Virus record (IMG/VR): IMGVR_UViG_2579778622_000006 | Coordinates: 1-20,803 of that record | Source: a virus | Taxonomy: Duplodnaviria > Heunggongvirae > Uroviricota > Caudoviricetes | Length of the DNA: 20,803 bases | Strand: one strand, 5' to 3' | In this document: in pieces, positions 1-15,844 of the stretch | Numbering within the stretch: the stretch's first letter is position 1 | Layout: each line of letters starts with the position of its first letter | Position numbers and translations under genes: made by a program | Notes under the pieces: model-generated | The model's database searches: none | Seen by the model: the letters and a program-made list of their open reading frames with translations, nothing else | What the model was told of the DNA's origin: nothing

Positions 1-257
1 AAAAATAAAATAAATACAACAACCTTACGGTGTATTTTGATGTCATTAATGTGAAAAAATTCAATGATATCAAATGGTTTTGTAAAAACACATGGTTGTT
101 GTATCGCGTATTTGATGGCGTAACAGAAAGTGATTTTTAACTTTACCGCTCTGTAACTACGGATTATTCCATGCTGGCACGGAGAACGGCTACGGCATGA
201 CGCCACCCAGCCTATACAGAACAGTAAAGCCGATAAATTGTTAATCACGCGCAGCAA

Positions 258-452
258 TGCGTGTGATTTTTGCACACTTCCGGTTAACGGGTACGATGTC
301 CGGTTTGTTTGTACATTTTTTGCACATGTCCGGTTCGCAGAAAGCATGTTTTTATATTTTTCATATAGTTAACTTGCAGAGAAACCGGACATGGATCCCG
401 AAAAATTTTCATAAATAGTGAAAACGCGCGAGGTCGACGCCCCGTAACGGGT
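258..452 (-). other. cos: lambda-type cos site: cosN-like 12-mer (431-442, GGGCGTCGACCT on minus strand) plus cosB-like repeat region (266-392)
   Basis: Minus-strand read CCGTTACGGGGCGTCGACCTCGCGCGTTTTCACTATTTATGAAAATTTTT is near-identical to the lambda left-end cos as I recall it (GGGCGGCGACCTCGCGGGTTTTCGCTATTTATGAAAATTTTCCGG). Followed by an AT-rich stretch and repeated ATGTCCGGTT motifs (296-305, 326-335, inverted at 383-392). Confidence 0.7.
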
Positions 453-473
453 CCACATGCCGGAAAGGACCCG

Positions 474-497
474 CAAAAAAAGCCGGATTTCTCCGGC
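474..497 (-). terminator. rho-independent terminator ending the capsid operon
   Basis: Hairpin GCCGGA-tttc-TCCGGC (482-497) with an A-run at 474-481 on plus, giving a U-tract after the stem on minus. Lies 7 nt past the stop of the 504-917 gene. Confidence 0.6.
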
Positions 498-503
498 CTT
501 GTC

Positions 504-917
504 TCAGATGGTTTTCAGTATGCGATCGATGTTGCCGTCATCGACCGGGTTTCTGCCATCGTATGCCATGCCAGCTGATACGGCTTTCGGGCTGTGCATG
601 TCCATAAAGTTTTCAAAGGCTGAAGTAAGCTGTGGTGCAACCTTCGGGCGTTCCTGCTCTATGGTCATGCTAAGGATGCTTTTAGCCGTACCAACATCGA
701 TACAAGGCACGTTAGCCATTGCACGTAACAGCGGCTGGTAGTCGTCAGATTCATGAAGCGCCATAATCGCATCAGCGCGCTGCTTGTCCTGTTCTTCCAG
801 TTTGTTTAGTCGGTGTATGGCCTCGTAGGTTGATAAACCTCTGTCAGCCATTGCCCGCGCTTCGGCTTTAAATTTACTCGCCAGCGGTAGCGTCATGATA
901 CTTTCATTCGTTGCCAT
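504..917 (-). CDS. hypothetical protein, last gene of capsid operon (occupies the position of a lambda FI-like packaging protein)
   Basis: 137-aa ORF co-oriented with the capsid genes and followed by a terminator; protein-like acidic composition. No family recognised. Confidence 0.5.
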   Translation of the reverse strand: MATNESIMTLPLASKFKAEARAMADRGLSTYEAIHRLNKLEEQDKQRADAIMALHESDDYQPLLRAMANVPCIDVGTAKSILSMTIEQERPKVAPQLTSAFENFMDMHSPKAVSAGMAYDGRNPVDDGNIDRILKTI

Positions 918-929
918 CGTTCCCCCTGC

Positions 930-1265
930 TTATCGGGCCAGCGGCTGAACGGATACGCCGGAACCCGCAAAGGCGGCGCATTTTTTCGCATCGGTGTCGA
1001 CGCTGTCAGGCCAGTTAACGGCGGCAATATTGAATATCCCCGTTTTGTAACACTGTGCTGATTTCTGCTTTGACGTGTCCACGGGGTGCGAAGTCAGATA
1101 AACAGCTTTGCCAGATTCCTGACCATCCCACGCCTTAAACTCGCCATTGTCTGCCAGCATCAGCGGGGTAAATTCCTGAATAACGCCAGCATCAGCGGCA
1201 AAATGTACCAGCGTCGTGGATACCTGCTGGCTGCCTGCAAATAACTCAATATATGGAGCGTCCAT
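930..1265 (-). CDS. head decoration protein, lambda gpD family
   Basis: 111 aa. Shares TPLMLxD, AWDG, YKTG and AFAG motifs with recalled lambda gpD. GGGGGA RBS. Confidence 0.85.
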   Translation of the reverse strand: MDAPYIELFAGSQQVSTTLVHFAADAGVIQEFTPLMLADNGEFKAWDGQESGKAVYLTSHPVDTSKQKSAQCYKTGIFNIAAVNWPDSVDTDAKKCAAFAGSGVSVQPLAR

Positions 1266-1276
1266 AGAATCCCCCG

Positions 1277-2332
1277 TTAAGCAATTTTGACGGTAACAAA
1301 TTTGCGAATATCTGCCGGTACCGGCTGCGGTGCGCTGTGCGTCTGCACGTACTCAATCGCCGGATCGCCGTCCTCAATCCAGTTTTTCGGGTAGTACATG
1401 TTTTGCGTTGCGCCCGTTCTTACCGCTTCCTGATCCATAATCGCACCATAGGCCACCAGCCCTTTATTATTGGTGTTACCCAGGACCAGCAAATCAGGCT
1501 CAAGGAAATATTTTTCGGTGCCGTCGCTGTCAGTGTATTTGCCGGAATAGACGATAAGGGCCAGATCACCAAGATAGCCTTTAAAGCTCACCACTTCGCC
1601 CAGGTTTTTACAGGCCAGCTCGGCGGCGGATTCTGATCCACGGGAAAGATCGTACAGTTCACGGAATTTTTTAAAGCTGCGTAATGTGCGCCATACCTCA
1701 CCGCCCATAATCATGACGTTGGCGGGGCAACCTGCCTGATCAGCATAAAGCTCGATGTCATAGATTGGGTCGTGCATGTCTTTATCCTGCTGGGACCATT
1801 TTTTACCACTGGCCTGCTGTATGATGCAGTTTTCCGGTATTTTCCAGTCGATTTCATAGCGTTCTATGCCTTCGCCCTCAATGATGTTTTTTCCGGTCGT
1901 TACCGCATTCACCGCCAGCCATTCCACGCGCGCCTTAATGGCGTTTATCTGGCGGCGCATGTTGCCAGTAATCAGGCGCATACGGCGGTAAGTTGGATCG
2001 TTAAGCTGTGCCGGATCTTCTCCAGCCATGCGCATGATGGTCTTTGTTGGATCGATTTCGTGCTTTGGCTTCATGTAGCCAGGTTTAATCGTGCTGGTTT
2101 CGTACCCTTTATCGCGCTGGACCTGACTACCCACCATAGGCGAACAGAAAGCCGACATCGTAACCTCTTCAATGTCCAGGGTGTCCAGCATGATGTTTTG
2201 GGTGTTGAAGGTCGCCACGTTCGGGAAAAACAGCGTGGTAAACAGCGGACTAAATTTAAATTCCGAAATATCCCCGCGATTCAGGTACGCGAAAAGCTGG
2301 TTAGTTGTAAGTGCCGTTGCTTTGCCTGTCAT
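1277..2332 (-). CDS. major capsid protein, lambda gpE family
   Basis: 351 aa. Matches recalled lambda gpE in several blocks: EFKFSPLF, PGYMKPKHE, EDPAQLNDPTYRRMR, YPKNWIEDGDPA. GGAGG RBS. Confidence 0.9.
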   Translation of the reverse strand: MTGKATALTTNQLFAYLNRGDISEFKFSPLFTTLFFPNVATFNTQNIMLDTLDIEEVTMSAFCSPMVGSQVQRDKGYETSTIKPGYMKPKHEIDPTKTIMRMAGEDPAQLNDPTYRRMRLITGNMRRQINAIKARVEWLAVNAVTTGKNIIEGEGIERYEIDWKIPENCIIQQASGKKWSQQDKDMHDPIYDIELYADQAGCPANVMIMGGEVWRTLRSFKKFRELYDLSRGSESAAELACKNLGEVVSFKGYLGDLALIVYSGKYTDSDGTEKYFLEPDLLVLGNTNNKGLVAYGAIMDQEAVRTGATQNMYYPKNWIEDGDPAIEYVQTHSAPQPVPADIRKFVTVKIA

Positions 2333-2538
2333 TATTCACCTCCGTGAACCTGATTCATACCCAGCGCCGCACGTAAATAGGTACGCACCTGCCAGCCTGT
2401 TGACGGCTCAACCATCGCCAGCGGATCAAGTCCTGCCGCAATGCCTGCTTTTACATTCTGCTGGTGGCGTTCCTTGAGCGCCTCCACGATGTCGGGGCTT
2501 ATGTAGACCGTCACCCCGCCTTTTTTCTCTTCTGCCAT
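2332..2538 (-). CDS. hypothetical small protein, first gene of capsid operon
   Basis: 68-aa ORF with AGAGGA RBS; its stop overlaps the MCP start (TAATG), suggesting translational coupling. Confidence 0.5.
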   Translation of the reverse strand: MAEEKKGGVTVYISPDIVEALKERHQQNVKAGIAAGLDPLAMVEPSTGWQVRTYLRAALGMNQVHGGE

Positions 2539-2573
2539 AGTCAGAAATTCCTCTTTGACTTAAAAAATCATAA

Positions 2574-2623
2574 CTGGATGTTCATCCAGTCCTGATTATA
2601 ATCATGATTGCATTTTGCGCAAC
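2574..2623 (-). promoter_or_regulatory. candidate sigma70 promoter of capsid operon with a 16-bp palindromic operator
   Basis: On minus strand: -35 TTGCGC (2617-2622), 16-nt spacer, -10 TATAAT (2595-2600), then perfect palindrome CTGGATG-TT-CATCCAG (2574-2589) at the predicted start region. Confidence 0.35.
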
Positions 2624-2703
2624 AATATTGAGTTACGTTGCAAATTATGAAATGATTATCCCGATCATGTGTGCCAGTGCACCATAAAAAACCTCGTATA
2701 CAA

Positions 2704-2743
2704 AAGCCCGATAAGCCCCCTGTGACCTTATCGGGCTTTTTTT
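2704..2743 (+). terminator. strong intrinsic terminator hairpin on plus strand with no upstream plus-strand CDS
   Basis: 10-bp stem CCCGATAAG(G)/CTTATCGGG with an 11-nt loop, followed by TTTTTTT (2737-2743). Confidence 0.5.
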
Positions 2744-2748
2744 AGGCG

Positions 2749-2771
2749 TAAAAAAGCCGGATTGCTCCGGC
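2749..2771 (-). terminator. rho-independent terminator after the ProQ/FinO gene
   Basis: Hairpin GCCGGA-ttgc-TCCGGC (2756-2771) with an A-run at 2749-2755 on plus (U-tract on minus). Confidence 0.55.
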
Positions 2772-2796
2772 TTCGTCTCTTCATGTGGTCAGGGTT

Positions 2797-3381
2797 TTAT
2801 GCTTTCCGTACGCCCGAGGAACTGGCATTTTTCAGAATAATATTATGCCCTGCTGGTGGCTTACCGTTATGCTTATTTTCTGCCTTCATGTTTCTGCGCT
2901 CCTGCTGTTTTTTCTTCATCTCATCCAGTCGCTTCCCCGCGTTCAACTGGTGCTCCTGTGTCACCTCCCCGCACGGATGGCCTTTCAGGTCGTAACGCAC
3001 GCCACCAGCCATCAGGGAACGGTAATATCGCACTGAACTGACATAATACGCCAGCGTTGCGCGAAGCGCTCCCTGACCTAATGAAATACCTCTCGCAGTA
3101 ATATCCTCCATCAGGTCATCAAATATGCCAACCTTAAGCGGTCTGGGCGATTCCTGGCTGAAAAGTTCAGGCCAGAGCGCGGCAAGGCGTTCAACGCGTC
3201 TGATATTTTTTTTCCGGCTCTTTTCTGATTTGCGTTTTGCTGCCGTCTTCTGTTGTGTTTTCTGCTCGCGGCTCTGCTTTTGCGCTGGTGTGGTTTTATC
3301 CGGCTGTTCAGCCTCCTGCGTCTTTTTCTGCGGTGTGCCGTATATGCCTTTTGGTTTTCGGTTAATGGTCAGCTTTGTCAT
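2797..3381 (-). CDS. ProQ/FinO-domain RNA-binding protein with lysine-rich N-terminal tail
   Basis: 194 aa from the ATG at 3381 (GGGGGAG RBS). C-terminal PLKVGIFDDL...LRATLAYYVSSVRYYRSL...RYDLKGHPCGEV matches the recalled E. coli ProQ N-terminal FinO domain (PLKIGIFQDL...RVDLDGNPCGEL). Confidence 0.75.
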   Translation of the reverse strand: MTKLTINRKPKGIYGTPQKKTQEAEQPDKTTPAQKQSREQKTQQKTAAKRKSEKSRKKNIRRVERLAALWPELFSQESPRPLKVGIFDDLMEDITARGISLGQGALRATLAYYVSSVRYYRSLMAGGVRYDLKGHPCGEVTQEHQLNAGKRLDEMKKKQQERRNMKAENKHNGKPPAGHNIILKNASSSGVRKA

Positions 3382-3460
3382 GTTCTCCCCCTTTGTGCTG
3401 TTCCACCAGCGGCATCTGCTACCCCGTGTCGCTCCCGCTGGTGTCGTGTTTCCCCGCCTG

Positions 3461-3781
3461 TTAATAACCGTCATCATTTACGTTATCAGGGTAATCACGC
3501 CATATTTCATCAGTAAGCGACGGTAGCCCCATCTGTTGTATTGTCCTGTCTGCGGCCCTTCTGACTGCGTGAACATCATAACGGTTTTCAGGTATCGGGC
3601 GCTTTGCCTTCCTGATACATTCCCTTGCTCTCATTGCCGCAAGTTCTCTGTGCCTGTCTTCCTGAAGAGTAATCATCACATCCTGCCACCTTCTGGCAGC
3701 CCGTCGCCACAGTCCCCTGCTCTCGAGTTCTTCTGCTGTCGCGTCGCTTATTGTCCGGTTCTTCGGTGTGCTGTTGTTCAT
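3461..3781 (-). CDS. PerC-family-like transcriptional regulator
   Basis: 106-aa ORF containing AEELESRGLWRRAARRW, the motif I associate with PerC/Pch-type regulators. Assigned from memory of the motif only. Confidence 0.5.
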   Translation of the reverse strand: MNNSTPKNRTISDATAEELESRGLWRRAARRWQDVMITLQEDRHRELAAMRARECIRKAKRPIPENRYDVHAVRRAADRTIQQMGLPSLTDEIWRDYPDNVNDDGY

Positions 3782-3798
3782 GTTGCTCCCCGCCTGAT

Positions 3799-4209
3799 TC
3801 AGAAGGGTATATCATCTCCGTAGGGGTCATCGCCTCCCGCTGGTGGCTCATTCCCCTGTGTGCCTGTGGTTTTGCGTCTGTTCCCGCCATGACGTGCCGC
3901 ACGCGCACTGATTACGCTGTCTGCGATAACCTGCCAGCCCTGCCGCGTTTCCCCGTTCTGTCCGGTCCACTGGCTCACCTGCATGTTACCCGCCACGCTC
4001 AGGAGTTCACCTTTGCGGTGCTTTGCCAGTGCTTCGGCCTGTCTGCCAAACGCCAGCACAGATAACCACATCGTCGCCGTTCCGTCATCTGCCTGGCTGC
4101 ACGGAAGGGGGACCGCCATACTCGCCATCGCCATTTGTGTCCCCTTGCTGGTGGTCTTTAACTGCGGGTCAGCCACCAGCCGCCCGTAAGCCGCTATCTG
4201 TGCTGTCAT
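3799..4209 (-). CDS. ssb: single-stranded DNA-binding protein (short SSB)
   Basis: 136 aa with OB-fold-like core (WLSVLAFGRQAE...KGELLSVAGNMQVSQWTGQNGETR), a Gly-rich linker and the canonical acidic C-terminal tip DDIPF. Confidence 0.85.
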   Translation of the reverse strand: MTAQIAAYGRLVADPQLKTTSKGTQMAMASMAVPLPCSQADDGTATMWLSVLAFGRQAEALAKHRKGELLSVAGNMQVSQWTGQNGETRQGWQVIADSVISARAARHGGNRRKTTGTQGNEPPAGGDDPYGDDIPF

Positions 4210-4457
4210 GCTGTATGCTCTCCGGTTTTAACGTTGATGGTTGTCACCTGTTCCGCTCCGGCAATCTCCCGTTCTGTCAGCGTGGCAAAATTTGCCGCTA
4301 CCGTTGTCATGAATGCGCTTATCAGTTCGGGATGTGCTTTCGCGTATCCTTCTCCCGCGTGGCGGTCTATCGTTCTGATTGCCACCTTTAAGGCGTGCTC
4401 TGTCATGTCTAACGCTTTATATTTTGGCGCTGTCTTATCTCTGGTTTTTCTGTTCAT
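4206..4457 (-). CDS. hypothetical protein
   Basis: ORF 4206-4487; the upstream extension translates the iteron repeats (GEWWG), so the ATG at 4457 is preferred. Overlaps the ssb start. Confidence 0.4.
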   Translation of the reverse strand: MNRKTRDKTAPKYKALDMTEHALKVAIRTIDRHAGEGYAKAHPELISAFMTTVAANFATLTEREIAGAEQVTTINVKTGEHTA

Positions 4458-4458
4458 T

Positions 4459-4670
4459 CCCCACCACTCCCCACTTTTGCTCCCCACTTTTTAAATTCCC
4501 CACTTGCTCCCCACCTCGTTTTTTGAGTGAATCTAATGCTTTGTTTTTCATTGCGTTTTTTACTCCCCACTTTTTTGGATATATACAGGTGGGAAAGTGG
4601 GGAATTATGTTTCAATTTTGTTAAATTCCCCACTCTCCCCACTTTTACTACCCACTTTTTACAGTGGGTA
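4459..4670. repeat. iteron array, putative satellite replication origin
   Basis: At least 9 copies of TCCCCAC(TTTT) in direct orientation (4459, 4468, 4481, 4496, 4508, 4563, 4626, 4635, 4649) plus inverted copies (GTGGGAAAGTGGGGAA at 4588-4604; CAGTGGGTA at 4662-4670), flanking an AT-rich core (4570-4585). Sits immediately 3' of the helicase gene. Confidence 0.6.
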
Positions 4671-6074
4671 AACATCATCCCCATCGACACAAATCACGCC
4701 GTCTTTTTCCAGCTTGGACAGCCAGCGCCGGAAGTGCTTCATCTCATACCCCAGCTTTTTCATATCGTCGCGGAGAAGGGCGATAGTGCATGGCTCTTTG
4801 TGTGCCGTCCGCGTTCTGATGCACTGCCATAGCGCGGTATGGTTTTCCGTCTTGTTGCCTGCCTCCTCGATGCGCTCCAGTTCAACGGGAGAGCGCGGCT
4901 TATCAACCACCACCAGCGACGTGATTAACTCCCCGTCAGCGTCGGTAAAAAGCTCCACCACGCGTAAATCGTAGGCGGCCTCTTTCAGTTCCTCCGCGTC
5001 CTTCATTTTGGTGCAGGATATAACCAGGGCTTTACTGTCTGCACCTTCTCGGCGAATACGGTATTCAGCGTCCAGAGATGCACGAAATGCACTGGAACCA
5101 CGCGCCCCCTTTGTTTCATCCTTGCCGGAATGGTGGACCACCAGCACCGTGGCCCCTGTGCGTCGTTTCAGGTCGTCACATCCACGGATAAACGCCCCCA
5201 TATCCCGCGCGTCATTTTCATCATTACCGCCAAAGCAACGCGCCAGCGTATCCAGAATAATCATGCGTACCGGTTTACCCGTTTCCCGTTCAACCTGGCG
5301 GGAAGCGATAACCATTTCATCAACATCAAGCGGGGCTGCCGGAAAAATCGGGCGGTTTACCAGGTACAGATTTTTCACCCGTTCATCATTAACGATTTCC
5401 CATGCCTTGATACGACGGGGGACACCAATGCCACCTTCACCGACAACATACATCACCGAACCATGCGCCACCCTGCGGCCTCCCCAGTGGCGCCCCGTGG
5501 CAACATGACACGCCCAGGAACACGCAAGGAATGATTTATAGGAACCGCTCGCACCGTATGTGCTGCACAATGAATTAGCCGGAATCACGCCCTTAACGAC
5601 ATAATCAAGCTGTGTGTCGTATCCTGCAGATCCAATGCTCATGGGTAGCGTGGTTTTTCGCTGGCTGTATTGCTCATCAGTAAGTATTTCCCCGCGCTCT
5701 GCCTGTTCGCGGATCCGTTGCAGGTAGTCGCGCCATTCCTCCCGCTTCTGGCTGTGCATTCCCTCGGGGTAATAACTCGCATCCCGTACACCTGCCGCCG
5801 CCAGTTTTTGCCCGATGGCATTAATATTTGATGGCTTGATGTGGCCTGCCTTGTACAGCCGGACACAATAGCGACCATCGTCGATAATTTTCAGGTCTGC
5901 CAGTTCGTCAAGCTGACTGTCTCCCAGCCATACTGGCGGGACGTTATCGCCAGCAAGTCGCCCGTCCTGTTCCTGCCATTGTTTTGCGTGCGCCCAGGCA
6001 TCACTACCTGCAAAAATAATGACTTCGGTCATTTTGTTGTGTGGCTGTTTTTTTAAGTTCGGTGCCAGTTTCAT
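4659..6074 (-). CDS. replication protein: RecA-fold (AAA_25/DnaB-like) helicase with C-terminal winged-helix
   Basis: 471 aa. Walker A GASGSYKS; Walker B-like ILDTLARCF; VLVVHHSGKD motif typical of RepA/DnaB-like ATPases; C-terminal basic wHTH-like segment. Confidence 0.8.
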   Translation of the reverse strand: MKLAPNLKKQPHNKMTEVIIFAGSDAWAHAKQWQEQDGRLAGDNVPPVWLGDSQLDELADLKIIDDGRYCVRLYKAGHIKPSNINAIGQKLAAAGVRDASYYPEGMHSQKREEWRDYLQRIREQAERGEILTDEQYSQRKTTLPMSIGSAGYDTQLDYVVKGVIPANSLCSTYGASGSYKSFLACSWACHVATGRHWGGRRVAHGSVMYVVGEGGIGVPRRIKAWEIVNDERVKNLYLVNRPIFPAAPLDVDEMVIASRQVERETGKPVRMIILDTLARCFGGNDENDARDMGAFIRGCDDLKRRTGATVLVVHHSGKDETKGARGSSAFRASLDAEYRIRREGADSKALVISCTKMKDAEELKEAAYDLRVVELFTDADGELITSLVVVDKPRSPVELERIEEAGNKTENHTALWQCIRTRTAHKEPCTIALLRDDMKKLGYEMKHFRRWLSKLEKDGVICVDGDDVYPL

Positions 6075-6370
6075 TTTTTATCCCTGAATCCGTTAATCAT
6101 GGTTTTCATCTTCTGAATATTGGCGCGTGCTTTCTCCCTGCTGGTTGGTTTACTGCGGGGCGCTGCCTGTACCAGAGAAAAATCACGCCGGAACTGATAA
6201 ACAGGCATCACGCAGTCATATTCGTAGCCATCACGGCGGTAAGTGATGCGCCGTTCTGCCACGCCTTTAATCGTTACCGTACCGCCGTAGTTATCACGGA
6301 AAATATCGCCGGGACGGATTTCAGGCCGAGCGGGGCCGCTGGCAGTAAAGCCAGAATTTTTCTTTTTCAT
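6071..6370 (-). CDS. hypothetical protein
   Basis: 99-aa ORF with AGGAAA RBS; its stop overlaps the helicase start (ATGA). Confidence 0.5.
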   Translation of the reverse strand: MKKKNSGFTASGPARPEIRPGDIFRDNYGGTVTIKGVAERRITYRRDGYEYDCVMPVYQFRRDFSLVQAAPRSKPTSREKARANIQKMKTMINGFRDKK

Positions 6371-6374
6371 GGTT

Positions 6375-6575
6375 TTATTTTCCTGTCAGTGATTCCGGCT
6401 TTATTCCGGCGCGAATACAGGCTTCAGAAAAAAAAGCCAGAGAACCAATAACCTCATTATTTCTAAGGCGGCATTGCGATTTCACTTTCCCTTTATCCAG
6501 GAATATCAAAACGCGCCCCGTATAATCAGATGGCACATTAAGCACTACAGGTAAGTGCGCTTCATGATTATTCAT
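6375..6575 (-). CDS. hypothetical protein
   Basis: 66 aa from the ATG at 6575, preceded by a perfect AGGAGG (6585-6590). The longer ORF start at 6644 lacks an RBS. Confidence 0.5.
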   Translation of the reverse strand: MNNHEAHLPVVLNVPSDYTGRVLIFLDKGKVKSQCRLRNNEVIGSLAFFSEACIRAGIKPESLTGK

Positions 6576-6855
6576 GGCTAACCACCTCCTGGAATTTTCT
6601 TCTGTAACGCGCCTCTGCCACATATTCAGCATAGTCCGACGCAATATTGAGAATATCGCTACCCGTTCCTGAATGTTCGGCGGTTTCCAGTAAAAAACAT
6701 GCAGCTTTTACCATGTCAGCAACACATAACAGCGCAATATCTGTATCTTCCGGTGTGCCATCAAATTCCTGTTTCAGGGCATTAAAACGATCATCACGCA
6801 TAACCCCATATTCACAATCAGCAATCAGGATGGCTTTGGCCTCATTCAGTGCCAT
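6568..6855 (-). CDS. hypothetical acidic protein, first clear gene of the leftward replication operon
   Basis: Protein-like C-terminal 95 aa of the 6568-7809 ORF; the stop overlaps the next start by 8 nt. Start is uncertain because the ATG at 6855 has no clear RBS. Confidence 0.45.
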   Translation of the reverse strand: MALNEAKAILIADCEYGVMRDDRFNALKQEFDGTPEDTDIALLCVADMVKAACFLLETAEHSGTGSDILNIASDYAEYVAEARYRRKFQEVVSHE

Positions 6856-7009
6856 ATCAGCGGTAAGCTGTGCGTAGGCCAGCAAATGCGGGATTATTGC
6901 CCCTGTATATTCCGGCTCTCTGATAATGTGGTCGGATGTGTTGATTAAATAGTTTGTGCGAAAAATGCACCTGTAACCATCAGTTAACAACGGATATACA
7001 GGGGGGACC

Positions 7010-7180
7010 ATGAATGATAAGGGGGTGCCGTTTGATGTGCTCCTGCAAAAGCTGAATGCTGCACGCGCCGCAAGGGAACGTGAGCGCATGAGTAATAACC
7101 CTGTCCCTCCTGAATTACCTCGCCCTGAACATTTTCCGCTTGAGGATTTCATCAGGGGACGAATCCGAACAAAACGATAA
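7010..7180 (+). CDS. hypothetical small protein (56 aa)
   Basis: ATG preceded by a G-run; shares the motif FPLE(D/R)FI with the 7424-7618 ORF. Ambiguous: the opposite strand is one long open frame. Confidence 0.25.
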   Translation: MNDKGVPFDVLLQKLNAARAARERERMSNNPVPPELPRPEHFPLEDFIRGRIRTKR

Positions 7181-7231
7181 CCGCCGCCGTGATATGAGGC
7201 ATCACGACGCAATGCATTACAGGTGAGCACC

Positions 7232-7348
7232 ATGAACAAATCCATATTATCCCCCACAGTTCTGGACGTAAACACAAAGCAGCGACAGATATTATTACGC
7301 GCCGTCATTAAAGCCAGACACGAGAAATTAAACCAAATCTTAAAATAA
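7232..7348 (+). CDS. hypothetical small protein (38 aa)
   Basis: AGGTGA RBS 5 nt upstream of the ATG; amphipathic, protein-like sequence. Confidence 0.3.
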   Translation: MNKSILSPTVLDVNTKQRQILLRAVIKARHEKLNQILK

Positions 7349-7423
7349 GATACGCCGCTACCGCTGTAAGTCTTCATCAGAAACAGAAAACGCCAGAGCA
7401 GATGAGCACGGAGGTAACTCTTT

Positions 7424-7618
7424 ATGAAAATAAACGAATCAGGGGAAATTACCGAAGCCAGCGTGGTACGCCAGCGGAGGCGGGAACGACGGGTACGGCC
7501 CCCCGCGCCATCCGATAATTTCCCGCTTGAGCGCTTCATCAGTGAACGGCCCCGCATACGCTGGAACGGCACAACCCCATACCCCGAGGAGAGACAGACA
7601 AAAAACAAACAGCGATGA
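7424..7618 (+). CDS. hypothetical small basic protein (64 aa)
   Basis: GGAGGT RBS 8 nt upstream of the ATG; Arg-rich; FPLERFI motif paralogous to the 7010 ORF. Confidence 0.3.
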   Translation: MKINESGEITEASVVRQRRRERRVRPPAPSDNFPLERFISERPRIRWNGTTPYPEERQTKNKQR

Positions 7619-7897
7619 TGAAATCTGGAGGCCAATACCATCACGCAGCCATCAGGAGATTGCTGACGCGCTTCCTGTTCGCTGGTGGCCTCGATGGTAA
7701 TCACGCGCGGTTGTGCAGTGCTCAGGGCGATAAAACGCCACACAAAGGCCGTTTGTGTGTGCGCCAGGCGTGGGGTATGCTGTCTTACAGCCATAAAACT
7801 ACCTCTCATAACGGTTTGTGGTTAGAAGCCCCGTTACTGCTCCAACAGTGCGGGGCTTCGTCGTTTCAATTGCTGAATTGCATGTATCAGCCCTTGT

Positions 7898-7951
7898 GGT
7901 ATTCAGATTACGTTTTGGTGAATAACATTTCAAGTCTTTTTTGGTATTCAC
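7898..7951 (+). promoter_or_regulatory. candidate operator repeats upstream of the RHH gene
   Basis: TGGTATTCA at 7898-7906 and 7942-7950, with an inverted partner GGTGAATAA at 7916-7924 (TATTCA-N12-TGAATA dyad), in the AT-rich region upstream of the 7995 start. Confidence 0.35.
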
Positions 7952-7994
7952 TTTTGTATTACACTGCATCACGTTATTAATCGGAGGTGCAAAC

Positions 7995-8300
7995 ATGTCC
8001 ACGAGTTCTGTTAACAATAAGTCACAGCAACTGAATGCCAGATTTCCACATGAAGTAGTGAGTGGCATTGAGGCATCCCTACAGCCGGGGGAAACTAAAG
8101 CGAATTTTATAGTTACGGCTGTACGCGGAGAGATCGCCCGCCGCCAGGCAGAAGGAAGAGGAGAAAATCCCCTAGTTTCTTCGCTCGATGCACTGGCGCA
8201 GGTGGAAAAAATCGGTGTCAAAGCTGCCGAGGAGATCGGGCAACTCGTCGCCGTTGCGCGTGAAGAACTCCAGCGGCGCAAAGCCAAAGAGCAGGAATAG
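7995..8300 (+). CDS. ribbon-helix-helix-like DNA-binding protein with coiled-coil C-terminus
   Basis: 101 aa from the ATG at 7995 (GGAGGTG RBS). N-terminal beta-strand/helix pattern (LNARFPHEVVSGIEAS...KANFIVTAVRGEIARR) typical of RHH/Arc-type regulators; followed by a terminator. Confidence 0.6.
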   Translation: MSTSSVNNKSQQLNARFPHEVVSGIEASLQPGETKANFIVTAVRGEIARRQAEGRGENPLVSSLDALAQVEKIGVKAAEEIGQLVAVAREELQRRKAKEQE

Positions 8301-8331
8301 CCCACCAGCAAGCCACCACACTGATCACATT

Positions 8332-8360
8332 GGCCACCGTGACAGGTGGCCTTTGTTTTG
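8332..8360 (+). terminator. rho-independent terminator after the RHH gene
   Basis: GGCCACC-gtgaca-GGTGGCC followed by TTTGTTTTG. Confidence 0.6.
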
Positions 8361-8454
8361 CCTGTTATCCGGCAATTGTGGAGCTTCGTCACACGGTTGA
8401 TATAATTCCCCTGCTCAGATTCATTTTTTGCGCGGCAGGTAAATTGTTCAGAAA

Positions 8455-8482
8455 GGCGGCTCCTTATCGGGGCCGCTTTTTT
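8455..8482. terminator. second hairpin with T-tract between the convergent RHH and alpA genes
   Basis: GCGGC-tccttatcgg-GCCGC followed by TTTTTT (8477-8482) on plus; possibly bidirectional. Confidence 0.4.
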
Positions 8483-8508
8483 CGTGTTTGTCATATCTGT
8501 GATACCCG

Positions 8509-8715
8509 TTAAGCAGCCGTTCCGCGTGCTTCCTGTTCGCGTTCTTTCTGCCAGGCCAACACATCATCCTCATACCATCCGCGACGGCGTAAACCAACGC
8601 GAAAACCCTGCGGAAATTCTCCGGCGTTGATCATGCTTTGCAGCGTGCTGTCTGCCTTGATGTGGATAATTTTTTTTACTTCCTGGCGAAAGATAATTTT
8701 TCTGATTGCTTCCAT
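8509..8715 (-). CDS. alpA: AlpA-family phage transcriptional regulator / excisionase-like HTH protein
   Basis: 68 aa; pattern IIFRQEVKK...GEFPQGFRVGLRRRGWYEDDVLAW matches the AlpA/Vis HTH_17 architecture. Confidence 0.8.
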   Translation of the reverse strand: MEAIRKIIFRQEVKKIIHIKADSTLQSMINAGEFPQGFRVGLRRRGWYEDDVLAWQKEREQEARGTAA

Positions 8716-8848
8716 CGTGATTTACCTTGTGAATCCGGTGTATTCCGGTGACAAATACGGTAAATCATCGGATATGGGTAAAAACAGTTCCCACCGTTTT
8801 TAAACGGTATACACCGTTTTTTATATTGATGATTTGAAATGGAATTAT

Positions 8849-8872
8849 AAAAAAAGCGGCATTTCTGCCGCT
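8849..8872 (-). terminator. rho-independent terminator after the orf83/int transcript
   Basis: AGCGGCA-gaaa-TGCCGCT on minus followed by TTTTTTT (plus 8849-8855 is an A-run); 10 nt past the stop at 8883. Confidence 0.55.
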
Positions 8873-8882
8873 TCCAGGATTG

Positions 8883-9134
8883 TTACCGCCATTTTTTGGG
8901 CCTGCCTCCGATCTTCATAGATGCCGGACGTACGACCTTATCAATACTTACCGCCAGATTTCTGGAAGCGCCACGGGATACCAGAAAATCTACTACCTGT
9001 TTTTTTGATGGGGCCGTCGTCCTGTCCTCCGGATCGTAGGTTGACCAAAATTCATGCTGAACCATCAGGGCCAGTTGCAGCCCGTCGCAATTGCATCTGA
9101 TATTTTTTTGCATCTTAACGGTTTCATGTTTCAC
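8883..9134 (-). CDS. hypothetical protein between int and alpA
   Basis: 83-aa ORF (GTG at 9134 or ATG at 9113) with a terminator directly downstream. Start uncertain. Confidence 0.45.
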   Translation of the reverse strand: MKHETVKMQKNIRCNCDGLQLALMVQHEFWSTYDPEDRTTAPSKKQVVDFLVSRGASRNLAVSIDKVVRPASMKIGGRPKKWR

Positions 9135-9211
9135 GGCCTTGTCGTTAAATTTGATGCAATTATACGACGGTTTTACATGGTTTTCGTAGTTTTTACTGGT
9201 TTTCTGTACAG

Positions 9212-10453
9212 CTACACGGCTCGGATACCCCTTTTACCACTGGCGAGGGTTACGCCCGTCGCCGCAGCCTCGACAAATTCGCCCCACCAGCGCATCAGCA
9301 CGATGCGTTTTTCTATGTAGTTGCTCCGGTTGTATGCCCGTCTAACTTCGTTGGTGTCGACGTGGGCAAGTGCCGCCTCTATTACGTCCGGCTCGAATCC
9401 TTCCTCGTTCGCTGCTGTGCTGAATATGGCGCGTAATCCATGAGACACCAGCACGCCAGCGAATCCCATACGCCGCAATGCTGCGTTAGCTGTCTGGCTG
9501 TTCATCGGCTGCTGTGGGTCTTTCAGACTTGGGAAAACGTAATTGCGGTGGTGGCTGATTGGTTTCATGGCCTCCAGCACCGCCATAGCCTGACCGGAAA
9601 GCGGGATAACGTGATCCCTGCGCATCTTCATGCGTCCGGCAGGTATCGTCCATTGCTTCGCGTCCAGGTTGATTTCATCCCACCGCGTTGATGACGCTTC
9701 GGCGGGACGGGTTACGGTCAGTAACTGCCATTCAATCAGTAATCTGGTCTGCCGTTCTGTTGCCGATACTGATAAAGCCTGCATAAGCTCGGGCAGCTGT
9801 TCGGGGCGGATTGTTGGCATATGTTTTTTTACAGGTGAGGGAAACGCCTTACGCACATTCATAGCCGGATTGGCATCAATCAGCCCACTGTTGGCGGCGT
9901 AATCCATTACCTCATTAACGCGCTGTAAAACCCGCTTGAGTGTTTCCAGGTTGCCGCGCTCCTTGATGGGGGTAAGCACTTCAACGAACCTTCGGGCGGT
10001 GAGGGTATCTATTGGCGTGTTGCCGATGAACGGGAATACATATTTATCCAGCGAACGCCAGATGTCTTTAATCGTGTTGGGGGCCAGATTCTGGCTGATT
10101 TTCACCTGGTACCATGCCGCCGCCACATTTTCGAACGTGTTCCCTTGTCTTCGGGCCTCTGTCTCTCTTTTTTGCCTCTCGTGGTCCTGCGGGTCAGTTC
10201 CGGCACTGATTAACGTCCTGTACTCGCTACGGCGTTTTCTGGCATCAGCCAGGGAAACATCTTCAAGCGATCCAAAACTCAGCAATATTCTTTTTTTGTC
10301 CGATGGTCGGTAGTAGGAAAATCTCCAGAGTTTTGATCCAGACGGTTTGACCAGGAGAAAAAGCCCTCCGCCGTCCTGCAGGGTGTACTCCTTTTGCGCT
10401 GGTCTGGCTGCTTTGATCTGCACTGTGGTTAATGGGTGTGTTTTTCTCGCCAT
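9212..10453 (-). CDS. int: tyrosine recombinase, P4-type integrase
   Basis: N-terminal arm-binding-like domain (LTTVQIKAARPAQKEYTLQDGGGLFLLVKPSGSKLWRFSYY), catalytic C-terminus with R...HGLR and terminal RAYNRSNY (Tyr). Adjacent to the tRNA 3' remnant. ATG at 10453 preferred over the GTG at 10471. Confidence 0.9.
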   Translation of the reverse strand: MARKTHPLTTVQIKAARPAQKEYTLQDGGGLFLLVKPSGSKLWRFSYYRPSDKKRILLSFGSLEDVSLADARKRRSEYRTLISAGTDPQDHERQKRETEARRQGNTFENVAAAWYQVKISQNLAPNTIKDIWRSLDKYVFPFIGNTPIDTLTARRFVEVLTPIKERGNLETLKRVLQRVNEVMDYAANSGLIDANPAMNVRKAFPSPVKKHMPTIRPEQLPELMQALSVSATERQTRLLIEWQLLTVTRPAEASSTRWDEINLDAKQWTIPAGRMKMRRDHVIPLSGQAMAVLEAMKPISHHRNYVFPSLKDPQQPMNSQTANAALRRMGFAGVLVSHGLRAIFSTAANEEGFEPDVIEAALAHVDTNEVRRAYNRSNYIEKRIVLMRWWGEFVEAAATGVTLASGKRGIRAV

Positions 10454-10485
10454 ATGTCTATGATTCCACACGAAAAAACAGGGTT

Positions 10486-10539
10486 TTAGTTATACGGCTT
10501 TAGTTATACGTCAGCCCGTATAACTAAACGTATAACTAA
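10486..10539. repeat. integrase arm-type site candidates: four 11-mers TTAGTTATACG (two direct, two inverted)
   Basis: Direct copies at 10486-10496 and 10500-10510; inverted copies CGTATAACTAA at 10517-10527 and 10529-10539; between the int start and the att core. Confidence 0.5.
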
Positions 10540-10590
10540 AAAATCCGGCTGATAGCTTATAAATCCGGTGATGTTCGGTGACTAAAAAAC

Positions 10591-10625
10591 ATAAAAAAAC
10601 CCGCCAATCAAGTGATTAGCGGGTT
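10591..10625 (-). terminator. hairpin with U-tract downstream of the tRNA 3' remnant (weak terminator)
   Basis: AACCCGC/GCGGGTT stem with a 14-nt loop; the A-run at 10593-10599 on plus gives a U-tract on minus. Confidence 0.35.
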
Positions 10626-10636
10626 ATCCCTGTCTT

Positions 10637-10664
10637 ATCCGGTGCTTTCCGGTGATATCCGGTG
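10637..10664. repeat. three tandem (A/T)TCCGGTG heptamer-core repeats at 10-bp period next to the att core
   Basis: ATCCGGTG (10637-10644), TTCCGGTG (10647-10654), ATCCGGTG (10657-10664). Related copies at 10564-10580 and at 8731-8750 in the alpA promoter region. Confidence 0.45.
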
Positions 10665-10671
10665 GGCGATT

Positions 10672-10720
10672 TGGTCGGCACGAGAGGATTTGAACCTCCG
10701 ACCCCCGACACCCCATGACG
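10672..10720 (-). other. tRNA-Pro (GGG-type) 3'-end fragment, 49 nt, not an intact gene; integration (att) junction
   Basis: Minus-strand read CGTCATGGGGTGTCGGGGGTCGGAGGTTCAAATCCTCTCGTGCCGACCA equals the anticodon-loop-to-CCA portion of E. coli tRNA-Pro as recalled; the sequence 5' of it cannot form the acceptor or D arm. Confidence 0.65.
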
Positions 10721-10912
10721 CCGCTTGTAAAACGCTGAGAGCCGCGCTATTGCTGGTTAGAAGTACCATTTGCATGTATAAACAAACAGTGCTTTTTCGA
10801 CATAATCTGCTCTATATACTTCAATGGCTTACATGGTGGTTTCTCCCCATGTTTGAATAGTTTCGAAGAGTTGTGTGACATAATGCCAGAATAAACTACT
10901 AGAGGCTGGATA

Positions 10913-11764
10913 ATGAAAAAAAGAACTAAAAAAGGCAGTAACATTCGTTTCCGAGAACACACTGAGGTTGAGAGGTCTTACATTAGCCTTTATAAGATCT
11001 TCTGCCGCGCTTGTGAAATTTCCGCGGCCATATCACTGAATCAAAGCGGAATTAAGACTGACGGCAGGGGAATACGGGCTGCAAATATTTTCACTCGTCA
11101 AGTGTTGACTGCGCATAGTCTTAAGAAACTACTACCAGTACTGCGAAACGGAGTTAATCCCGATGATACAGTATGGGATGTAACCACTATCGCACTTGTG
11201 TCCAGAAGTGTGATGGAAAATTTTCAGGCGCTTTTTTATTACGGAACGGAAACGGTCTCGGAAGCGGAGGCTGACTTTCGTTTTCGAATTTTCCAGAAAG
11301 ACAGAAATGTTAAATGGCGTGATATCAGACTGAAGGCTGGTGAATCTGAAGAATCACTGGAGGAGTTTTTCACCGGCATACCAAAGCAGCAGGAGGAGAT
11401 AGTGAACCATGAATTCTATAGTTCACTATCTAAAGAACAAAAGAATAGTCTCAAAAACAGGGCCGAAATGTATTATACCAAAGCTGAGTTCGAAGCTCGC
11501 TGCCCGCGGTTAGCCGACATTGCACTACATCACCAGTTACTATCAAATCTGGCTCATCCATTGCCACTGGCTATCCACAGGATTGATGAATTTAGCGGTC
11601 ATGGTGCACCCAGTGAAGCTGACATCTGCTTAGTCATAATATCCCTGAAGGTTGCTACAGACTGCCTAATTGCGTCAGTTGAGGGGATGGGCGAAAAATT
11701 TGCCGATAGTATCGGTATACATTATCGGTCAATGATTGAAGAACTCTCCAATTACTCACTTTGA
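10913..11764 (+). CDS. hypothetical protein, AT-rich cargo gene (candidate accessory or defence function)
   Basis: 283-aa ORF, the only plus-strand gene between the att remnant and the lambdoid int; visibly lower GC than its flanks; convergent terminator hairpin downstream; R-x6-H motif (RLADIALH) in the C-terminal third. Confidence 0.6.
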   Translation: MKKRTKKGSNIRFREHTEVERSYISLYKIFCRACEISAAISLNQSGIKTDGRGIRAANIFTRQVLTAHSLKKLLPVLRNGVNPDDTVWDVTTIALVSRSVMENFQALFYYGTETVSEAEADFRFRIFQKDRNVKWRDIRLKAGESEESLEEFFTGIPKQQEEIVNHEFYSSLSKEQKNSLKNRAEMYYTKAEFEARCPRLADIALHHQLLSNLAHPLPLAIHRIDEFSGHGAPSEADICLVIISLKVATDCLIASVEGMGEKFADSIGIHYRSMIEELSNYSL

Positions 11765-11792
11765 AATTAATACATTCCTCAACTTCCAACAC

Positions 11793-11821
11793 AGAGCAAC
11801 CCGTCCAATTTGGTTTGCTCT
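11793..11821. terminator. hairpin between the convergent 283-aa gene and int
   Basis: AGAGCAA...TTGCTCT stem (with extension) followed by GCTTTATAC. Confidence 0.4.
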
Positions 11822-11857
11822 GCTTTATACTAAAGCAATAAAGGGAGTAATTTATTA

Positions 11858-13036
11858 TTAGCTGGCTTTAATTTCTCCATGGGGAACGACAACCCAATCT
11901 ATATGATTTTGCGTGTAGATCTTGGTTGACTTCGCATCGCTGTGCGCCATTCGTCCTTGTGGATCGATACCCTGCTGATCGAATAGATGCGCTGCTAGTG
12001 CTCGAATTTCGTGAAAGGTTGGTCTTTCATCCATTGGTAGATTGTCGCATAAACCTAGTTTGTCCCGTGTAGCTGAAAACGACCTACTCAAATAGTCCGG
12101 TGCAACTTGAGTAGGATGTGAAACCTCTTTGCTGCGTTTAACTTGGCGTTCTGGGATCCTGTGAACGACAAACGGACTGGCCACATTATCTCGGCTATCG
12201 TCAATTATCCGTTTCAACTCTTCACCAATTGGTATTGCAACGTGTGACGCCTCTTTTTGTTGCACTTTTTGCCTGTGGATGTAAAGCGTCCCATATATGC
12301 CATTTTGTGGTTGTTCGAACCAGACACATCCACATATACCGTCTTTAGGTTCGCGAATTGAGTAACGGATTCGCGATACTTCGAGTCGTGCATGTGTAGT
12401 CTGCAATGCTAGGTCCATTGCTGTTCTTAACCATGGTGCAGCGGCCTGCCTGATAGCTATAAAATGCTCGAGTGACAGGCGCCGTCTTTTCTTCTCATCA
12501 GTCCTACGCATTTTTTTTCTGATGGCCGGGTTATCCAGCATTAGTGATTCATCGACCGCATAAGAGAACAACTTTTTAAGAAAGCTGACCTTTCTGTTCT
12601 GCACATTTGCGGATGCGCTGGCATGATATTTGTTGATGTAGGTATTAACGTGTTCAAGTTCGATATCGCATGCCGGAACATTTACGAAAAACGCTTTTAC
12701 GCGTAGAGCGTCATTTTTCCAGTCATCTAAGGTGCTCTGGGAAGGACGTTCGTCTTCGATAATTCGGGCCATTATGTGATCAACATGTTCAGCAAATGGT
12801 TTTGCTTCTCCGATAACACCGCCAGATTCTCTAATAAGATTATCTACTGATGGAGATAATTCTGGTCGCATCCTCAGGTTGTACTCTCTGGCGATTGCAA
12901 TGGCTATTGCCCTATCCTTACCTATATTTTTCTTCTTTCCGGTAATAAGTGTGAATTTATAAACACCTCGATCTTTATCAAAAATCAGATAATCAGGAAG
13001 ATGTCTGTATTCTTTTTTACGTGGCCTTGCCGCCAT
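11858..13036 (-). CDS. int: tyrosine integrase, lambda Int family
   Basis: Aligns to recalled lambda Int in several blocks (LSLEHFIAIRQAA..WLRTAMDLA vs LTADEYLKIYQAA..WLRLAMELA; RPTFHEIRALAAHLF vs PPTFHELRSLSARLY). ATG at 13036 with GAGGGGTGA RBS; the ORF-track start at 13042 is a GTG. Confidence 0.9.
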   Translation of the reverse strand: MAARPRKKEYRHLPDYLIFDKDRGVYKFTLITGKKKNIGKDRAIAIAIAREYNLRMRPELSPSVDNLIRESGGVIGEAKPFAEHVDHIMARIIEDERPSQSTLDDWKNDALRVKAFFVNVPACDIELEHVNTYINKYHASASANVQNRKVSFLKKLFSYAVDESLMLDNPAIRKKMRRTDEKKRRRLSLEHFIAIRQAAAPWLRTAMDLALQTTHARLEVSRIRYSIREPKDGICGCVWFEQPQNGIYGTLYIHRQKVQQKEASHVAIPIGEELKRIIDDSRDNVASPFVVHRIPERQVKRSKEVSHPTQVAPDYLSRSFSATRDKLGLCDNLPMDERPTFHEIRALAAHLFDQQGIDPQGRMAHSDAKSTKIYTQNHIDWVVVPHGEIKAS

Positions 13037-13038
13037 GG

Positions 13039-13248
13039 TCACCCCTCATTTATTAACTTGCGAACAGCTTGACTAACCATTGAGTCGACTCCCCATTTTT
13101 CTGTTTCGCAGACAAAAACAGAACCGTCCACGATACGCCCCATGAGCAGACCGTTCTCGACCCAGCGTTTTATCGTTCGGTTGTCAGGAATTGAGCCATT
13201 AGAGAATTCACGGCGTCCCCATTGGCTCGCTTTCATTAGTTTTGCCAT
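13039..13248 (-). CDS. xis: excisionase (Xis-like)
   Basis: 69 aa from the ATG at 13248 (GGAGAAA RBS). Pattern ASQWGRREF...RTIKRWVENGLL...DGSVFV resembles lambda Xis (LQEWNARQ...ETVRRWVRE). Lies immediately upstream of int. Confidence 0.7.
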   Translation of the reverse strand: MAKLMKASQWGRREFSNGSIPDNRTIKRWVENGLLMGRIVDGSVFVCETEKWGVDSMVSQAVRKLINEG

Positions 13249-13309
13249 GGCTGTTTCTCCACTTAACCCGCTGCACACGGGCAGTAATATCAAATTTCAG
13301 TCCTGATAA

Positions 13310-13525
13310 TTAATTTTGTTCTATGGTTGCTACCTGTTTAATTGGCCTGATGCTGTCCAGGAGCAGTCGGCGGCGCGTATTTTCTGCAAAGTGGCGGCGT
13401 CCGGTTTCTTTGTGGTAAAACTCGTTTTTTCCGACGACCCACATCCGCTTTGTCTGGTGCAGTTTTTTTACCTGCGGACCGTTTCGGGTAATAACAATTC
13501 CTGTATGAGTTTTTATCACGCTCAT
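13310..13525 (-). CDS. hypothetical protein
   Basis: 71-aa ORF with GGAGAA RBS; start overlaps the upstream stop (ATGA). Confidence 0.5.
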   Translation of the reverse strand: MSVIKTHTGIVITRNGPQVKKLHQTKRMWVVGKNEFYHKETGRRHFAENTRRRLLLDSIRPIKQVATIEQN

Positions 13526-13884
13526 TTCTTATTCTCCGGTGCTTTCGGCATTACTGCCCAGTGAGTGATATTGACGTTTTCAAGGTCCCCGACCTGAAAT
13601 GTCCACTGCCATTCTCCGGTTTCTTTTTGCCCCCATGTGTACCAGAGAGAACGCCAGCCAATCAGCCAGCCTTCTCCGTTAGCATCAAATAACAGAACAC
13701 TTTCATTTGCTGGTGGCAGTTCAGCTGACACTGGTATTACTTTGTTTTCCAGTGCTGCACATTTAGCTTCAAGCGCATCTAATTTACGCACCAGGTATTC
13801 AGCATCCGTTTCATTCACTTTCAGGTCTCGTGGTACACATCTCCCGCGAAGAAACCCTTCCATTTCGAAAACATTCATGCGCAT
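13522..13884 (-). CDS. hypothetical prophage protein (Trp-rich C-terminal domain)
   Basis: 120-aa ORF, GGAG RBS 8 nt upstream of the ATG; coiled-coil N-terminus and Trp-rich C-terminus. Confidence 0.5.
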   Translation of the reverse strand: MRMNVFEMEGFLRGRCVPRDLKVNETDAEYLVRKLDALEAKCAALENKVIPVSAELPPANESVLLFDANGEGWLIGWRSLWYTWGQKETGEWQWTFQVGDLENVNITHWAVMPKAPENKK

Positions 13885-15082: not shown

Positions 15083-15109
15083 GGTACATTATGTATCTCA
15101 AAGGTACAT
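15083..15109. promoter_or_regulatory. candidate left operator (O_L) dyads
   Basis: GGTACAT-t-ATGTATC (15083-15097) overlapping ATGTATC-tcaaa-GGTACAT (15091-15109); same half-site family as the dyads flanking the cI start. Confidence 0.45.
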
Positions 15110-15153
15110 TGTCAAGTATAAAAAAACCTGCCGAAGCAGGTTCATAACATTGA

Positions 15154-15828: not shown

Positions 15829-15844
15829 AACGAAATTAAAACCT

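Follow-up and report, generated by a model that had tools for sequence, protein, structure and literature searches.

The window analysed here, that is, the whole 20,803-nt (20.8-kb) stretch of viral record IMGVR_UViG_2579778622_000006, carries on its minus strand (258–472) a lambda-type cos site, which comprises cosQ, a 12-nt cosN and a tripartite cosB that is not of the lambda type. Upstream of this site lie the capsid genes of a satellite island (504–2332, minus strand), in the order of EcCICFT073 c1499/c1500, in agreement with a sequence-only reading of the same DNA, which had described a lambda-like cos next to a satellite capsid operon. The genes, all on the minus strand, encode a lambda E-type major capsid protein (1277–2332; Pfam Phage_cap_E, 2.4e-50), a lambda D-type head decoration protein (930–1265; Pfam HDPD, 1.7e-17) and a 137-aa protein (504–917) that matches the C-terminus of PHROG 53, the head maturation protease (E = 9e-8). 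This match suggests that the 137-aa protein has a Nu3-like scaffold domain; in some RefSeq genomes it is labelled 'head-tail connector'.

Positions 1–10600 of the window are 100% identical to a locus of E. coli B771, for which RefSeq lists an integrase, an HTH regulator, a RepA-family helicase, SSB, PerC and ProQ/FinO in addition to the major capsid protein, the head decoration protein and small hypothetical proteins, and which adjoins tRNA-Pro. The element has the gene order of EcCICFT073, which is located in CFT073. It fits the description of that family, whose members are elements of ~10–11 kb beside a tRNA gene with an integrase, an AlpA-like regulator, a replication module (primase or helicase), E-like capsid and D-like decoration genes, and a cos. 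The host element of the site is a phage-inducible chromosomal island (PICI) of the EcCICFT073 family, a published satellite type, and by analogy its induction, replication and transfer would depend on a helper phage.

We numbered the site from the first base of cosN (bp 1 = window 442, minus strand) and compared it with lambda by in-register alignment with the circularised lambda cos. A block at 460–472 (bp −30 to −18), GGGTCCTTTCCGG, is identical to lambda at 13 of 13 positions and includes the cosQ heptamer GGGTCCT (466–472; bp −30 to −24), at the position of cosQ in lambda. This element lies just outside the interval, 258–452, covered by the sequence-only reading, and it is kept among lambda-like phages (PMC4669245). 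The 12-nt cohesive-end sequence itself, GGGCGTCGACCT (431–442), differs from its lambda counterpart GGGCGGCGACCT by a single substitution, G6T, which creates GTCGAC; the earlier description of a 12-mer with one change and lambda-like flanks was accurate (11/12 for cosN, 37/40 for bp 1–40, 8/10 for bp −10 to −1). Staggered nicking that leaves 12-nt 5′ cohesive ends is what one would expect of a lambda-type cos, and is putative here. The conserved cosN-proximal flank extends over bp 13–44 (399–430); from about bp 45 onwards identity to lambda is at chance level, with 0–3 matches per 10 in most bins.

Beyond this point the lambda R sites are replaced by a different repeat. Three exact copies of the 10-mer AACCGGACAT are present in the window (296–305, 326–335 and, inverted, 383–392), all within 296–392, where a simple count gives a chance expectation of ~0.04 for the whole window. 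A repeat search returned ATGTCCGGTT at 296–305 and 326–335 with an inverted copy at 383–393, and the longer segments TTTTTGCACACTTCCGGTT (267–285) and TTTTTGCACATGTCCGGTT (317–335) are 89% alike. Repeats are thus present where the sequence-only reading had put them, but the conserved unit is a core of 10–11 nt rather than a 20-mer, and the copy at 276–285 is degenerate. The proposed proximal binding site for a small terminase subunit (TerS), R3′ (CCATGTCCGGTTTC; 381–394, bp 49–62, core copy at bp 50–60), is as far from cosN as lambda R3 (bp 50–65; PMC9026076). R2′ (AACCGGACATG; 325–335, bp 108–118) is inverted relative to R3′ and occupies the same position as its equivalent in a second cos of the island (see below), which is approximately that of lambda R2 by our reading of the lambda sequence; its core is kept in both phages and islands. 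R1′ (AACCGGACAT; 296–305, bp 138–147) is oriented like R2′. R3′ and R2′ are separated by an A+T-rich spacer (336–380; bp 63–107), a possible bend site for integration host factor (IHF). Its A+T content, 71% as compared with 73% in lambda, bears out the earlier description of an AT-rich stretch. As to its likeness to an IHF site, the best match to the consensus WATCAANNNNTTR has two mismatches (lambda I1 has 1–2), and a scan of the spacer with the consensus found none with one mismatch or fewer. An IHF site in this spacer is a plausible candidate.

The proposed mimicry of the lambda R3-I1-R2-R1 layout is supported for R3′ and the inverted R2′, which lie at lambda-like positions around an A+T-rich spacer. 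R1′ has an orientation opposite to that of lambda R1; the site further differs from lambda in that its R sequences are unrelated and that no Nu1 gene follows downstream in the island. When eight island and phage cos sites were aligned, a small sample, R3′ was invariant (0 of 14 columns variable), R1′ varied in 1 of 11 columns and R2′ in 4 of 15, mostly at its edges, compared with 41–100% of columns in the linkers; the spacer at bp 63–95 varied in 4 of 33. Nearly invariant R sites between variable linkers are what one expects of protein-binding sites, which these would be. A degenerate fourth copy of the core, AACCGGAAGT (276–285, minus strand; bp 158–167), has two mismatches and is found in islands only; it corresponds to AACCGAAAGT in the second cos of EcCICFT073 and EcPF5, and prophages are without it. 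A 53-aa open reading frame on the plus strand (257–418) covers cosB; in phage PhiR12_1 an annotated 'hypothetical protein' (L001 4062–4184, minus strand) likewise lies wholly within cosB. Both are probably spurious gene calls.

We surveyed 5426 complete E. coli genomes and 50,697 phage records for this cosB. In distant blastn comparisons with the phage records, most lambdoid phages match only cosQ and cosN, and the PhiR12 phages match 184 bp (88.6%), through R1′; in PhiR12_1 the cos lies between the lysis genes and a gene annotated as 'terminase subunit Nu1'. The R3′–R1′ segment has matches in 1185 of the E. coli genomes, and 1151 (~21%) hold at least 80% of a 496-bp prophage segment made up of cos and terS. 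In every prophage copy that we inspected, the lysis genes are followed by cos, then by the gene for a 169-aa TerS (WP_000235436), which starts ~50–80 bp beyond R1′, and by terL. We refer to this lambdoid E. coli prophage lineage with the same cosB as class A; its hosts include O157:H7, O55:H7, O104:H4, GF4 and B771. Homology between the island and the prophage cos stops at R1′, beyond which the sequence is island-specific, and the small-terminase gene directly downstream of cosB in the homologous prophage sites is missing. Judged by this distribution, the cosB is the standard cosB of the class A lineage and is not satellite-specific, contrary to the earlier idea that it is a satellite replacement of the terminase-binding region.

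The class A TerS would account for the difference from lambda that the sequence-only reading had predicted, namely packaging by a lambda-like large terminase subunit (TerL) with a differently specific small subunit, as it is encoded beside the same cosB in the prophages. Its match to Pfam Phage_Nu1 covers only residues 49–150 and leaves the N-terminal domain outside. Over its first 55 residues, the protein shares 18% identity with lambda Nu1, 22–23% with 21-type TerS and 17–22% with N15-like TerS, and a PDB search with the protein gave no significant match, lambda gpNu1 included. Since the DNA-binding domain is only 22–23% and 17–22% identical to those of the 21-type and N15-like proteins, class A is, by sequence, a further TerS specificity class beside lambda, 21 and N15. 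We rejected assignment of the class A cosB to the lambda, 21 or N15 class, since those classes have other R-site sequences and other TerS DNA-binding domains. Like phage 21 and N15/Monarch (PMC4669245), the class combines a lambda-type cosN with R sites that are exchangeable and fit the DNA-binding domain of their TerS; CATGTC is common to the class A R core and the R sites of 21-type prophages. TerS of class A and of a second prophage class, B, are 93–94% identical in the C-terminal half and 17–22% identical in the N-terminal domain (L014 3183–3692 compared with L018 2681–3187), and each is paired with its own cosB. The TerS DNA-binding domain and cosB appear to have been exchanged together, as a module, in front of a common TerL-binding half.

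Two further variants were seen among the class A prophages. In one O157:H7 prophage, terS is interrupted by an insertion sequence. In the prophage of O157:H7 F3113, 30 bp are missing between R2′ and R1′ (L013 ~1560–1600), which leaves a two-site cosB; the loss looks as if it arose by unequal crossing-over between two direct repeats, and by analogy it parallels the proposed origin of the simple N15 cosB.

Ten genomes contain a cosB at least 99% identical to window 296–400, and the best copy in GF4 and AR_0085 is a prophage cos, not an island. Both of these have the G6T cosN, which is also present in the prophage cos of B771 and in the second cos of the island. The 496-bp cos and terS segment of the GF4 prophage is 100% identical in B771, GF4, LH50-c and Ch1, with only seven genomes at 99% or more, and the four account for all but one of the five genomes in which the island is present at 99.5% identity or above. 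Prophage cosB and window 296–400 agree at 105 of 105 positions; bp 43–147 are identical to the GF4 and B771 prophage, and from bp −7 to 147 the island matches the resident prophage except for two bases, both between cosN and R3. The remainder of the site is mosaic: its terminator, cosQ and cosQ–cosN spacer resemble the Rpp-side cos of related islands, and its distal part matches the second cos of EcCICFT073. The sequence-only reading had allowed that the site might simply be a shared helper cos, should the neighbouring prophage have an identical cosB. In substance this is what we found, except that the prophage in question lies ~416 kb from the island in B771 and is not the neighbour.

We mapped the rearrangement that produced the site against EcPF5 and the islands of strain 142 and Nissle 1917. 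In EcCICFT073, EcPF5 and strain 142, the order along the gene strand is capsid genes, cos, rpp, a second, inverted cos and a gene for a 93-aa protein. The first cos of these relatives has GTGACACCACCACCAC... at the R3 position and rpp ~100 bp away; the 144-aa protein of EcPF5 is an Rpp homologue (E = 4.5e-31 to RppC, PDB 6hlk). EcCICFT073 and EcPF5 have a class A cosB in their second cos, with ~91% identity to the window over ~250 bp; in strain 142 the second cos has a different cosB. In the window and in B771, the class A segment is inverted and directly follows the capsid-side cosQ. Two features of the Rpp-type 'cos1' are absent here: there is no rpp at ~100 bp, and the window has CCATGTCCGGTTTC where EcCICFT073 has GGTGACACCACCACCAC (R3-PICI, bp 48–65). 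All that is left of rpp is a 72-bp 3′ remnant (141–212, minus strand; encoding ...AGWRHAVAVLRASME*), 83% identical by blastn to the rpp 3′ end of EcPF5, which sits in a 386-bp tract that is 88% identical to, and collinear with, strain 142. A hairpin with a T-run, terminator-like (243–270, plus strand), is homologous to the sequence right after the rpp stop codon in EcPF5 and EcCICFT073; it trails that codon in the relatives and has been kept here without the gene. The TTTTT in the repeat of the copy at 276–285 is part of this terminator-like hairpin (246–263).

A small terminase or Rpp gene, which the sequence-only reading had proposed to look for left of the window, did not turn up beside the site: between cos and the next island gene, tblastn found no terS or rpp homologue and blastn only the 72-bp rpp tail, and none of the other annotated genes of the island is terminase-like. 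The collinear window-type arrangement is present in 14 of the 5426 genomes, 11 of them at 95–100% identity with some copies only at 95–97%, and one of these genomes (H42) carries an island with a primase in place of the helicase. Because it recurs in 14 genomes, including diverged copies and one with another replication gene, the window-type arrangement is an established variant and not a single accident. Directly beside the rpp remnant, the rpp stop region is present again in inverted orientation (~208–229), and the two form an imperfect 22-bp inverted repeat, a scar of the rearrangement that removed rpp. The Nissle 1917 island, at the same tRNA-Pro site, has a 180-aa TerS in place of rpp (L006 2359–2901). 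The DNA-binding domain of this TerS is 54–56% identical to the N15-like class, and the cosB beside it resembles the second cos of the B771 island.

That second cos is lambda-type and convergent with the first. It continues to ~125 bp left of the window (L005 11880–12000); cosN, which again has G6T, begins 93 bp beyond the left edge, the cosQ block is slightly degenerate (GGGTCCTTCCTGG), and the distal part of the tripartite cosB opens the window (1–125, plus strand), with R2′′ ATACAACAACC at 14–24 and R1′′ GGTTGTTGTAT at 104–114. The GGTTGTTGT cores are at bp 51–59, bp 108–118 (inverted; window 14–24) and bp 198–208 (window 104–114); N15 R3 is GAGGTTGTTGTTTAAT. In prophages this second cosB type lies upstream of terS, in 299 E. 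coli genomes, and the N15 TerS DNA-binding domain closely resembles that of the adjacent TerS; among the 50,697 phage records it had no match, so that it was seen in prophages only. Its R cores and the TerS of the prophages with this cosB place the second cos in the N15/Monarch specificity class; its layout is of the complex, Monarch-like kind that Feiss and colleagues described (PMC4669245). It would give the island a second helper class.

We consider it probable that the site is a class A helper cos carried by an EcCICFT073-family island, through which the island is packaged directly by the unmodified terminase of its helper. The features of such a strategy are present: the cos matches that of a potential helper, and no island TerS or adaptor was found. 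Upon induction of a class A helper, the helper's own, unmodified TerS would bind R3′, R2′ and R1′ on the replicating island and place the lambda-like TerL of the helper on cosN, and the island would be cut there and packaged leftward with no need for an Rpp adaptor or an island TerS. As to its origin, the site is homologous to the second, inverted cos of EcCICFT073 and has been flipped into the position of the Rpp-type cos, leaving 72 bp of rpp; the stretch from cosN to R1′ has since come to match, almost base for base, the cos of a class A prophage in the same genome. We infer that the class A prophage is the actual helper of the island.

Several observations weigh against this reading. The reversed R1′ departs from the lambda arrangement, and the IHF site is putative. 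Co-residence is not obligatory, as strain 135 has the island and its island copy is the only match to the cosB in that genome; moreover, the four genomes with both elements may be related strains and not independent cases, and the source genome of the window is not B771, as its right flank differs. The loss of rpp and the rearrangement scars fit a decaying island equally well. Cutting, TerS binding and helper-dependent transfer at this site are predictions from its DNA.

The decaying island is the alternative to which these scars most directly speak: recombination between two inverted cos sites would have scrambled the packaging module and deleted rpp, and the cos would have fallen out of use. 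The inverted segment, the 72-bp remnant, the orphan terminator and the rarity of the arrangement (14 of 5426 genomes) all fit such a relic, but cosQ, cosN and the three R cores are intact and identical to the prophage cos, the arrangement persists in copies of 95–97% identity in different strains and with at least one other replication module, and the integrase, helicase and capsid genes of the island are apparently intact; we regard a relic as unlikely. An active site could also be read by a factor of the satellite itself, an Rpp-like adaptor or an island TerS that redirects a lambda-like helper terminase to a satellite-specific cosB. Such factors do exist in close relatives, as rpp lies ~100 bp from cos in EcCICFT073, EcPF5 and strain 142 and the Nissle 1917 island has its own 180-aa TerS, and three small proteins of the present island (137, 93 and 68 aa) have no assigned function in the Pfam/PHROG comparison. 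That the cosB is identical to prophage cosBs beside their own TerS, and that rpp and terS are absent here save for the 72-bp remnant, makes this explanation very improbable. In addition, RppA gave no transfer via the cosB of the second EcCICFT073 cos (PMC6739421), and the 137-aa and 93-aa proteins do not co-vary with cosB, since both are also found in islands with other cosB types.

The two convergent cos sites of different classes, on the other hand, might point to interference: the cos of a multicopy island could act as a decoy that titrates or misdirects the helper terminase, replacing interference by Rpp, with packaging from the N15/Monarch cos or not at all. Deletion of the second cos raised lambda-mediated transfer of EcCICFT073 (PMC6092414), so a second cos can hamper transfer. 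The proposal is speculative and compatible with packaging, and once terminase has bound a fully cognate cos, packaging would be expected to follow; we give the proposal the least chance among these alternatives. A broader scheme, which we put forward only tentatively and think may well be wrong, is that these islands carry a packaging cassette between two inverted cosQ–cosN copies with exchangeable cosB modules, the window being a dual mimic (class A plus N15/Monarch) without an adaptor. The cassette could be flipped and reshuffled if the inverted cosN repeats recombined, or if terminase cut both and the ends were rejoined; gene conversion with resident prophages could keep the island cosB matched to the local helper; and islands might thereby switch between Rpp hijacking, a TerS of their own and mimicry of one or two helper classes.

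Direct packaging through a helper cos would not be new in principle, as both the carriage of helper cos sites by satellites and lambda-like PICI cos sites are published. EcCICFT073 is known to have the capsid gene c1499, the decoration gene c1500 and two cos sites with lambda-like cosQ and cosN and non-lambda cosB, both of which promote phage-mediated plasmid transfer (PMC6092414, PMC6739421). Its second cos, which we presume from its position and from the action of RppA on the other site to be the 'cos2' of the literature (Fillol-Salom et al. 2018, 2019), is among the closest known systems: the ~91% identity over ~250 bp runs from cosN through the R sites, spacer, fourth copy and hairpin, and the flanking 137-aa and 93-aa genes are the same. 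It differs in that its orientation to the capsid genes is opposite, whereas the window site, with G6T and with rpp deleted, is in the position of the Rpp-type cos. The Rpp-type 'cos1' of EcCICFT073 also follows the capsid genes and has a lambda-like cosQ and cosN with a non-lambda cosB, but it has a single proposed R3 (GTGACACCACCACCAC...), no I1, R2 or R1, and rpp near bp 100 (PMC9026076), in place of which the window has a three-site cosB of different sequence and no rpp. The cos of class A prophages such as PhiR12_1 is essentially the same site, followed by the phage terS after R1′ where the island has sequence of its own.

Among satellites, a helper-type cos without terS is known from SaPIbov5, which carries the cos of its helper (cited in PMC6092414), and from the E. 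coli PICI 11capE, 258 bp of which match the cos region of its helper 50icd at 90% identity (PMC10111431). SaPIbov5 differs in belonging to an HNH-dependent staphylococcal cos system; for 11capE the shared cos was noted, with no description of a convergent pair of helper-type cos sites or of a lost rpp. In the searchable literature, the coverage of which is incomplete, we found no recognition that the class A cosB is cognate to a major prophage lineage that has a TerS DNA-binding domain of its own, and no Rpp-less variant with two head-to-head helper-type cos sites. If the class A reading is correct, the second cos of EcCICFT073, whose role was left open in both original papers, would be cognate to another helper lineage, one that is very common, and this predicts which prophages mobilise EcCICFT073-type islands. 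Close relatives within one satellite family would then have adopted three packaging solutions at one locus, namely the Rpp adaptor, a TerS of their own and helper-cos mimicry. Among lambdoid prophages with one TerL-binding half, cosB and the TerS DNA-binding domain seem to have been swapped as matched modules. Such relationships bear on predicting the spread of virulence islands in E. coli and on designing cos-based delivery particles with a chosen helper specificity.

The capsid operon appears to be closed by a terminator-like hairpin between it and cosQ (GCCGGA-GAAA-TCCGGC; 479–500, minus strand, with a T-run at 473–479), whose counterpart precedes cos in EcCICFT073, EcPF5 and strain 142. 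We identified it by an inverted-repeat search and direct reading; it was absent from the output of a consensus terminator scan.

To the right of the island, a different prophage occupies the window from ~10600 to 20803, where the B771 island is instead directly followed by tRNA-Pro and yejM. Because the right flank differs, the window is from a strain other than B771, with tandem integration at the tRNA-Pro site. This neighbouring prophage (~10.9–20.8 kb) was considered as the cognate helper and judged unlikely from its relatives, as its own late region is outside the window: the closest of them, at the same tRNA-Pro site, have HNH and a P27-family TerS, an HK97-type head and a contractile tail, and a lambda-type cos is not the expected substrate of a terminase of that kind. 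A tRNA search of the 20.8-kb window found none. A 16-bp direct repeat lies near the island ends (L005 11380 and 22526), and we tentatively assign it as the att core.

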